Source of the DNA: a virus
IMG/VR virus record: IMGVR_UViG_3300042731_005304
DNA length: 26,231 nt
Direction: 5' to 3' (one strand)
This document shows positions 19,705-20,470 of the stretch, piece after piece; position 1 is the first letter of the stretch; every line of letters begins with the position of its first letter. The notes beneath the pieces were generated by a model. The model worked only from the letters and a program-made list of their open reading frames with translations. It had not been told where the DNA came from and ran no database searches. A program made the translations under genes and the position numbers.

Positions 19705-19934
19705 ACCCTGTCTTTTCCGGTTGCTTCTCTTATGAGATTCTCAAGTCTCCTTAAATTGACCATTGCCGAATTATACTCAGTTCGCATCTTTTTGCCAAGA
19801 TCTGTGGTCTTCCTACGTTTAACTTTCCTTGTCGTTAATATTAAAGCTAAGACCAAGTTCTCTAAAATGAGTAACGAAACTGCTATTATAAGCGCTACTT
19901 GCATTAGAGTAATAACTCTCTTATTTCTTGCCAA
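19701..19934 (-). CDS. Hypothetical membrane-anchored protein, 77 aa
   Basis: N-terminal hydrophobic helix VITLMQVALIIAVSLLILENLVLALIL, followed by a basic/coiled region. Confidence 0.4.
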   Translation of the reverse strand: MARNKRVITLMQVALIIAVSLLILENLVLALILTTRKVKRRKTTDLGKKMRTEYNSAMVNLRRLENLIREATGKDRV

Positions 19935-20470
19935 TTGTCAACTTTGTATGTTGCTTCTGCTTCTTCGTTGTAAGGATATTTGAGTGCAATCGTTATTTCA
20001 CAATTGCTGCTAGCCAGATAAACAGGTGAATCGTCGATCATGATATCTCCGTGTAACAAGTGTTTGTGTGCACAGAATATCAGTCTTGAAATGTCGAAGA
20101 ATGGTAAATACTTTGACGTCCATTCTATTTTTTCGGGTATACAGTTTTTAGATGTTGGCCATGGCTTGGTAACTATGAAGACTTCATATCTGTCATAGAG
20201 CTCTTCCATGGTTTCTAAGCAACCAGAAATCGGCTTCATACTTGCCCAATAGTCTGGAGCATTAAAAAGCTCTTCAAACATTTCCGTGATTTTAGTATCG
20301 GGGAGATGCGGATACATCACTCTCAAAATGTTATATTCTGTAACATCTTCTTTTTCGAGGCGGCCCTTCCAGCCATAAAGCTTGCCCATGTACCTGGCAG
20401 TTGCCTCATTGAAGTCCGTCAGGGTGTTATCCTGGTCAACTAAAATCGTCTTTTTCATGTAAACCCTCAT
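19904..20470 (-). CDS. 5'(3')-deoxyribonucleotidase (HAD superfamily, NT5C/dNT family)
   Basis: N-terminal ILVDQDNTLTDF is the HAD DxDxT motif in the NT5C context (compare IxVDMDGVLADF). Length is 188 aa. Confidence 0.6.
   Translation of the reverse strand: MRVYMKKTILVDQDNTLTDFNEATARYMGKLYGWKGRLEKEDVTEYNILRVMYPHLPDTKITEMFEELFNAPDYWASMKPISGCLETMEELYDRYEVFIVTKPWPTSKNCIPEKIEWTSKYLPFFDISRLIFCAHKHLLHGDIMIDDSPVYLASSNCEITIALKYPYNEEAEATYKVDNWQEIRELLL

Follow-up and report, generated by a model that had tools for sequence, protein, structure and literature searches.

A phage gene of the NT5C deoxyribonucleotidase family lies in a conserved set with genes for NrdJ and a predicted ordinary thymidylate synthase

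We analyzed a 26,231-nucleotide stretch of viral DNA (IMG/VR record IMGVR_UViG_3300042731_005304; the whole of this stretch is referred to as the window) around a gene for a deoxyribonucleotidase of the NT5C family. A preliminary description had placed the gene at 19904-20470, and we confirm a minus-strand open reading frame (ORF) of 188 codons there, running from 20470 to 19904, with the peptide ILVDQDNTLTDF in its translation (coded by 20411-20446). The start is probably further downstream. A search of 5.8 billion proteins returned 15 homologues, all of which begin at what is the second methionine of the long ORF (Met5, ATG 20458); a Shine-Dalgarno sequence, GAGGG, can be read on the minus strand at 20464-20468, 5 nt before this ATG, and inspection of the sequence ahead of ATG 20470 found no comparable site. 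Because all 15 homologues start there and GAGGG precedes ATG 20458 only, the coding sequence is most likely 19904-20458 (184 amino acids), ATG 20470 being reached only by the maximal ORF. A TTG-start ORF of 77 codons with an N-terminal hydrophobic stretch (19701-19934, minus strand) overlaps the 3' end of the gene by 31 nt; two relatives (P0009 and P0011) have no such ORF and instead carry a C-terminal extension of 25-29 residues on their NT5C proteins. Predicted promoter and terminator sites near the gene are no more numerous than in shuffled sequence.

The protein is firmly placed in the NT5C, or 5'(3')-deoxyribonucleotidase, family of the HAD superfamily, in agreement with the preliminary description. 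Pfam NT5C (PF06941) matches it with 99.4 bits against a cutoff of 24.8 (E=3e-28), spanning protein residues 8-187 and model positions 3-174 of 180, and the sole other Pfam match, HAD_2, is below threshold. Among the PHROGs it matches phrog_420 (unknown function; 9e-25) and phrog_2643 (5'-3' deoxyribonucleotidase; 7e-7). When the single protein is searched against all PDB sequences, only cdN, mdN, mouse cdN, the deoxyribonucleotidase-like protein 3bwv from Staphylococcus epidermidis, and a design on the mdN scaffold are retrieved, and a profile of the 15-member clade retrieves NT5C chains alone (E from 7.5e-23 to 2e-14), with no other HAD class. The AlphaFold2 (AF2) model, built on the clade alignment (predicted local distance difference test [pLDDT] 96.2; predicted template modeling score [pTM] 0.91), has a Rossmann-like core and a helical cap, for which the nearest solved structures are again NT5C enzymes: the top 16 Foldseek matches in the PDB consist solely of NT5C-family members and the mdN-based design (E from 2e-14 to 2e-11; template modeling [TM] score 0.74-0.85), with 3bwv, mdN, and cdN as the best folds, and unrelated HAD hydrolases appear at E of at least 2e-7 and TM below 0.65, about five orders of magnitude weaker. 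Closer kinship to unrelated HAD phosphatases such as phosphoglycolate phosphatase, which the preliminary description had named as the finding that would speak against its assignment, was looked for, and the best homology is to cdN, mdN, and 3bwv. The clade itself is small (15 clusters), lineage-specific, and divergent, but its family and this type of genomic setting are both familiar, and neither its structure nor its context holds a surprise. A role in defense or antidefense was considered and dropped, since PADLOC gives no match for the NT5C protein or its neighbors.

We aligned the clade with cdN, mdN, 3bwv, YorS of Bacillus phage SPbeta, and two further phage proteins (the NT5M sequence in the mdN row agrees with the PDB alignments), and find HAD motifs I-IV all present and every catalytic residue intact, either invariant or conservatively replaced across the 15 clade members. 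Motif I, DQDNT (20423-20437), holds Asp8, Asp10, and Thr12 and is invariant, the two aspartates corresponding to mdN Asp41 and Asp43; motif II Thr97 (20168-20170; mdN Thr130), motif III Lys132 (20063-20065; mdN Lys165), and a second conserved lysine, Lys110 (20129-20131; mdN Lys143), are likewise clade-invariant; and in motif IV, Asp142-Asp143 (20030-20035; mdN Asp175 and Asp176), the second residue is invariant and the first is D or E (all on the minus strand). The enzyme would hydrolyze 5'(3')-deoxynucleoside monophosphates (dNMPs) in a Mg2+-dependent reaction, Asp8 being the nucleophile that takes up the phosphate as an aspartyl-phosphate intermediate, with Asp10 as general acid/base, Thr97, Lys110, and Lys132 holding the phosphate, and Asp142 and Asp143 holding the Mg2+ ion. 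A helical cap lined by Phe16, Tyr42, Phe65, Trp71, and Trp100 would close on the deoxyribose and base; these residues are clade-invariant at positions aligned to mdN Phe49, Phe75, Trp96, Phe102, and Ile133, which surround the deoxyribose and base in that enzyme. To judge from these residues, the enzyme should be catalytically competent on nucleoside monophosphates.

The human and mouse enzymes cdN (NT5C) and mdN (NT5M; PDB 4l57, 2i7d, 1mh9, 1z4i, and 2jao) resemble the window protein in Pfam family, in fold (TM 0.74-0.81), in motifs I-IV and both conserved lysines, and in the aromatic cage around the nucleoside, but they are only 20-26% identical to it and act in the cytosol or an organelle rather than in a phage. 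They also differ at the base. The base-edge segment of mdN, Trp76-Val77-Ser78, is missing as a three-residue alignment gap from the window clade, YorS, and 3bwv, and mdN Ile133 is replaced in the window clade by an invariant Trp. The S. epidermidis protein 3bwv is the best match in both profile and fold (E=7.5e-23; TM 0.78 query-normalized and 0.84-0.85 target-normalized), and it and SPbeta YorS share a shorter cap loop with the window clade, which differs from both in having Trp100 and a Pro-Trp motif. To our knowledge, no substrate has been measured for 3bwv or YorS. The preliminary description had pointed to a preference of characterized members for deoxyuridine and deoxythymidine monophosphates (dUMP and dTMP); this holds for human mdN (quoted in PMC12697855), but the clade has lost the loop that reads the base, for which reason we rejected a transfer of base specificity from mdN or cdN.

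The class II ribonucleotide reductase that had been reported nearby is confirmed: the gene at 16603-18906 (minus strand) encodes an adenosylcobalamin-dependent NrdJ of 767 amino acids (TIGR02504, 544.1 bits against a cutoff of 399.95), and class I reductase models score below their cutoffs on it. Between it and the NT5C gene lies a conserved gene for a 119-amino-acid protein (19345-19704, minus strand), followed by a transfer-messenger RNA (tmRNA). A search of 1.8 billion representatives yields just 13 clusters of homologues for the small protein, and its AF2 model, a confident one (pLDDT 89), consists of helices followed by a small beta-sheet; examined for a nucleotide-related function, it gave no significant PDB fold match. 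On the other side, the upstream neighbor is a divergently transcribed gene of 177 amino acids (20531-21064, plus strand) with no Pfam, PHROG, or PADLOC match, and a 41-46% identical homologue lies on the opposite strand beside NT5C in the metagenomic contigs L002-L005. The NrdJ genes of two of these relatives (L002:8530-12018 and L003:2938-6426) are 1,162 codons long and contain an intein with a homing-endonuclease domain, which the window NrdJ does not have.

Two ThyA-family paralogs had also been reported, and both are real but unlike each other. The gene at 4442-5335 (minus strand) is predicted to be an ordinary thymidylate synthase of the methanogen type, with Asn at position 177 (ThyA residues are numbered as in Escherichia coli), and its TIGR03283 score of 101.6 bits, below the cutoff of 174.55, marks it as a divergent member. 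It has 7,167 database homologues, is 55-58% identical to thymidylate synthases of bacterial metagenome-assembled genomes on contigs of up to 424 kb, and has one homologue that sits among ordinary cellular genes. Across 121 homologues, Cys146, Arg166, Ser167, Asp169, Asn177, and Tyr209 are invariant, as are the DPPC and RSND motifs, and 120 of them retain His207. The family also shares an Asp where E. coli has Leu143, which makes this residue a family trait, not the mark of a hydroxymethylase. Since the protein has every diagnostic thymidylate synthase residue as well as cellular homologues, the phage would make dTMP.

The second paralog (3615-4433, minus strand; phrog_160, E=1e-28) is a ThyA homologue of the phage type in which Asp takes the place of Asn177; it is a member of the ThyA superfamily but not a thymidylate synthase in the strict sense, and is predicted to modify deoxycytidine monophosphate (dCMP) at C5. 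It is 35-46% identical to proteins called thymidylate synthase in mycobacteriophage Muddy and in Gordonia, Streptomyces, and Serratia phages, and a homologue in two spring-water phage genomes is labeled "pyrimidine hmase." In 121 homologues Asp177, Arg143 (in place of Leu143), and Cys146 are invariant, and Tyr209 is replaced by Phe or Trp. The dCMP hydroxymethylase of T4 likewise has Asp at the Asn177 position; the Asn-to-Asp change has been described as the determinant of dCMP over dUMP use and is enriched on cytosine-modified metagenomic phage contigs (PMC13326640; PMC8670742). Asp169 is kept, and the D169N signature of 5-hydroxy-dCMP (PMC13326640) is absent. Because this gene carries Asp177, which is tied to dCMP, any base modification in the phage is likelier to be on cytosine. 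The Asp177/Arg143 family is large (688 database clusters and 343 IMG/VR viral contig matches), and its genes in other phages occur together with nucleotide kinases and NTP-pyrophosphatase-like genes. One member, P0144 (L024:8001-9230), has a fused dCMP deaminase domain and lies between a dUTPase_2-like gene and a family-A DNA polymerase fused to a uracil-DNA glycosylase. A literature search for a characterized product of the Muddy/Gordonia-type family found nothing relevant.

Gene order in relatives separates these two paralogs. The relatives are metagenomic, one of them, a distant one, on a 144-kb IMG/VR contig (3300037089_000505; L009), and no sequenced phage is close; a distant blastn search of 16600-24000 against INPHARED gave a sole match of 134 bp, in Thg1, and an exact 56-mer scan of IMG/VR gave none. 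The order NT5C, small gene or genes, NrdJ is kept in L002, L003, L005, and L009, with NT5C 56-61% identical to that of the window in the first three, and NT5C 35% and NrdJ 67% identical on the 144-kb contig. A 47% identical homologue of the 119-amino-acid protein directly follows NT5C in L004 and L005, L004 stopping short of the reductase. On the 144-kb contig, NT5C (at about 110.6 kb) and NrdJ are accompanied by a 60% identical homologue of the ordinary ThyA at about 126.5 kb, so that NT5C and ThyA are about 16 kb apart, as in the window. A 69% identical homologue of the ordinary ThyA is found on a 77.6-kb relative contig, which keeps the gene order of the window between HNH and DHH-ThyA and comes from the same sample as L004; the two contigs may belong to the same genome. 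These ThyA matches required profile scans, single-protein IMG/VR scans with either ThyA giving no match.

The Asp177 gene behaves differently. It adjoins the ordinary ThyA gene in the window, and no copy lies within 3 kb on either side of ThyA in five relatives; it was also not detected on the 144-kb or the 77.6-kb contig among the best 80 of the 343 viral matches, all of at least 40% identity, a scan that divergent homologues would escape, on contigs that may be incomplete. A 69% identical homologue occurs elsewhere, in a different context. The conserved set is NT5C, NrdJ, and the ordinary ThyA, and the Asp177 gene looks like an accessory insertion. That NT5C keeps company with these two enzymes speaks for a role of the nucleotidase in ordinary dNTP supply and against one in base replacement; by these two enzymes we mean NrdJ and the ordinary ThyA.

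We compared the protein with other phages by tblastn against 50,697 phage records. The best matches are YorS of SPbeta, over its full length, and its counterpart in phi3T (28% identity), followed by proteins of Bacillus pumilus Herelleviridae, a Staphylococcus phage, large Microbacterium phages, and two uncultured jumbo phages. SPbeta and phi3T have ordinary thymine DNA. The yorS gene adjoins yorR, annotated as a thymidylate kinase, and not a ribonucleotide reductase, and in Microbacterium phage Pumpernickel the NT5C homologue lies beside a dNMP kinase. Such kinase and nucleotidase pairs may be likened to the substrate cycles of animal cells.

From the family, fold, catalytic residues, synteny, and types of neighboring enzymes we infer a probable substrate class, direction of benefit, and physiological role. 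The enzyme would belong to a conserved deoxynucleotide-supply module with the B12-dependent NrdJ and the ordinary thymidylate synthase, and would act as a partial drain on the dNMP pool supplied by NrdJ, by ThyA, and by the breakdown of host DNA and RNA; the non-specific nuclease and the DHH phosphoesterase of the window could feed that breakdown. Surplus or unwanted dNMPs, most plausibly pyrimidine ones (for example dUMP), would be dephosphorylated against the action of kinases, as by cdN and mdN in animal cells. A catabolic valve or house-cleaning enzyme on the dNMP pool, rather than an agent of thymine removal, is the account we favor by this analogy, at slightly better than even confidence.

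Several points weigh against it. A dNMP phosphatase beside dNMP-making enzymes looks wasteful, and the benefit is argued by analogy. The phage carries the Asp177 ThyA homologue, a possible link to modified cytosine. The substrate is not readable from the NT5C sequence, and because mdN Trp76-Val77-Ser78 is absent from the clade, no dUMP or dTMP preference can be transferred to the enzyme. Finally, the view of the genome is 26 kb, most of the genome being outside it, and a dCTPase, dNMP kinase, or deaminase could lie elsewhere. Within the window we find no dCTPase/MazG, dUTPase, dNMP kinase, dCMP/dCTP deaminase, or glycosyltransferase, no dUTPase inhibitor, and no sugar-activation genes near NT5C, and among its small ORFs we looked for glutaredoxin, kinase, and dUTPase domains and found none; the absence of replacement-pathway genes from a window that covers the smaller part of the genome is weak evidence.

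The rival that survives best, which we nonetheless consider unlikely, makes NT5C the partner of the Asp177 enzyme: it would remove dCMP, or dUMP derived from dCMP, so that a C5-modified deoxycytidylate dominates, in place of a T4-like dCTPase. In its favor are the invariance of Asp177 in the family, the ties of this residue to dCMP and to cytosine-modified phage contigs, the nucleotide kinases and NTP-pyrophosphatase-like genes that accompany Asp177 homologues, and the lack of a dCTPase in the window, which leaves the purge role vacant. Against it, NT5C stays with NrdJ and the ordinary ThyA where the search for an Asp177 gene came up empty, both in the best 80 of the 343 viral matches and within 3 kb on either side of ThyA in five relatives, and, among the matches listed, the Asp177-gene phages and the NT5C phages are different sets. 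Moreover, the Asp177 enzyme presumably acts on dCMP, and destruction of this nucleotide would compete with the modification. We know of no dCMP-specific enzyme in the NT5C family. In a broader form, in which NT5C would be the canonical-nucleotide purge arm of a modified-pyrimidine pathway around the Asp177/Arg143 enzyme, for example as a dCMP- or dUMP-selective monophosphatase, the idea is a long shot; if true, no earlier member of the NT5C family would have been shown to exclude a canonical nucleotide of cytosine, and the finding would point to a new C5-cytosine modification in a large phage carrying tRNAs and a tmRNA. Functional analogues, if the enzyme removes a canonical pyrimidine nucleotide, would be the dCTPase-dUTPase gp56 of T4, the HD-type Dtm of DSS3_VP1, and the HAM1-type Dtt of PhiR1-37, but their folds are unrelated to NT5C and some act on triphosphates.

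The pathway proposed in the preliminary description, in which a dTMP/dUMP phosphatase purges the canonical thymidine nucleotide so that thymine can be replaced by uracil (as in PBS1/PBS2) or by hydroxymethyluracil (as in SPO1-type phages), finds little support here, and we regard it as very improbable. Beyond the preference of human mdN and the intact catalytic residues, it has a precedent in Dtm of PBS1 (A0A223LEB8), a phosphatase reported to be specific for dTMP (kcat 1.9 per min, Km 42 uM) that its authors assigned to PF06941, the one experimentally characterized phage member (Adv Sci 2025, PMC12697855). We searched 250 of the 252 kb of PBS1 with NT5C hidden Markov models and by ORF, and the sole ORF with an HAD DxDxV motif or NT5C-like character is gp39 (L018:34536-35261, minus strand; 241 amino acids), which adjoins DNA polymerase I and is presumably Dtm. 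The copy of PF06941 used gives no NT5C detection in gp39 at E≤0.1, an hhalign comparison of the window clade profile with gp39 is not significant (E=0.077, probability below 1%), and tblastn with the window protein gives no PBS1 or AR9 match at 1e-5; a residue-level comparison with gp39 was dropped because gp39 is too remote. The precedent is that the family is able to purge dTMP, yet it lends such a role of the window protein no subfamily-level support.

The wider setting also opposes a thymine purge. Replacement needs dTMP to be unmade or destroyed, and a PBS2- or SPO1-style purge would be futile because the phage synthesizes dTMP, as do its relatives by their ordinary ThyA; nothing is annotated as thymidylate synthase in the 250 kb of PBS1, and the window phage encodes a predicted one. 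The second ThyA points to cytosine, the window contains no ThyA-family candidate for a dUMP hydroxymethylase, the NT5C-NrdJ-ThyA set is kept where no Asp177 gene was detected, and NT5C homologues occur in SPbeta and phi3T. The annotation of the preliminary description was thus correct and its thymine-purging reading is not supported. Thymidine hypermodification by a pyridoxal-phosphate enzyme and a radical SAM enzyme was considered separately and rejected, since the class-V aminotransferase is a NifS/IscS-type desulfurase and the radical SAM protein could be matched to no specific family.

An HAD enzyme with a closed helical cap is not expected to admit polynucleotide ends. The least probable reading, that the protein is a non-nucleotide HAD phosphatase (of a sugar phosphate or small metabolite) or an end-healing 3'-phosphatase of nucleic acids, could call on weak PHROG matches to polynucleotide kinase (E=0.002) and phosphoheptose isomerase families, on the Thg1, ligase, PolX-like, tRNA, and tmRNA genes nearby, and on HAD proteins of RB69 and DLP3 whose best AlphaFold database (AFDB) match is "putative deoxyribonucleotidase" and which have been proposed as sugar phosphatases (PMC13326640), but it founders on full-length matches, cap domain included, to NT5C only, on the invariant aromatic counterparts of the nucleoside-binding residues of mdN and cdN, and on the lack of glycosyltransferase or sugar-activation genes nearby.

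The rest of the window portrays a large, tRNA-rich phage of an uncultured lineage. Its genes lie nearly all on the minus strand, at a GC content of about 0.40, and include ten tRNAs (Glu, Ile(tat), two Gln, Met, three Thr, and two Asp; 160-367, 5370-5444, 9457-9606, 10214-10285, 11520-11593, and 12038-12267, minus strand) and the tmRNA between NrdJ and the 119-amino-acid gene (19077-19343, minus strand; Rfam RF00023, 73 bits over the full model), for which ARAGORN gives the tag peptide GEEQFLMAA. Near the tRNAs is a dense set of translation and RNA-repair genes: a Thg1-like gene (23283-24059), an RF-1-domain protein of 111 amino acids (11183-11518), ClpP (8658-9278), a minimal PolX-like nucleotidyltransferase (21576-22127), and an ATP-dependent ligase (24531-25871). 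A PncA nicotinamidase/pyrazinamidase of NAD salvage (8044-8694, minus strand; NF008623, 180 bits against a cutoff of 174) overlaps the ClpP gene by 37 nt. The NifS/IscS-type cysteine desulfurase, a class-V aminotransferase, lies at 13433-14752 (minus strand; TIGR03402, 312 bits, below cutoff), and the radical SAM protein, at 22349-23281 (minus strand), has as its sole specific match a weak one to prokaryotic viperin (PADLOC pVip, E=2.4e-4) and adjoins Thg1 in L004 and L005 as well. An HNH endonuclease, a Serratia-type non-specific nuclease, and a DHH phosphoesterase are also encoded.

Directly downstream of the Asp177 ThyA-like gene is a gene unusual for a phage genome, encoding a major vault protein (MVP)-like protein of 893 amino acids (694-3375, minus strand) with an MVP shoulder (PF11978, 2.5e-27), a vault repeat (PF17795), and an SPFH/Band-7 domain. 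In L012, a relative contig syntenic with the window, neither this gene nor the Asp177 ThyA-like gene is present downstream of ThyA.

The NT5C annotation is well supported and also routine: this is a phage auxiliary nucleotide-metabolism gene from a family already represented in PHROGs and characterized in PBS1. The co-occurrence of NT5C with a ThyA paralog is an unreliable signature of thymine replacement, and ThyA genes need to be typed at Asn177 and compared with cellular enzymes before base replacement is inferred from them. The more interesting lead is the Asp177/Arg143 ThyA-like family, which may mark an undescribed modification of deoxycytidylate; should NT5C prove selective for a canonical pyrimidine dNMP in the Asp177 setting, it would represent a new enzyme class for the rewriting of the DNA alphabet by phages.

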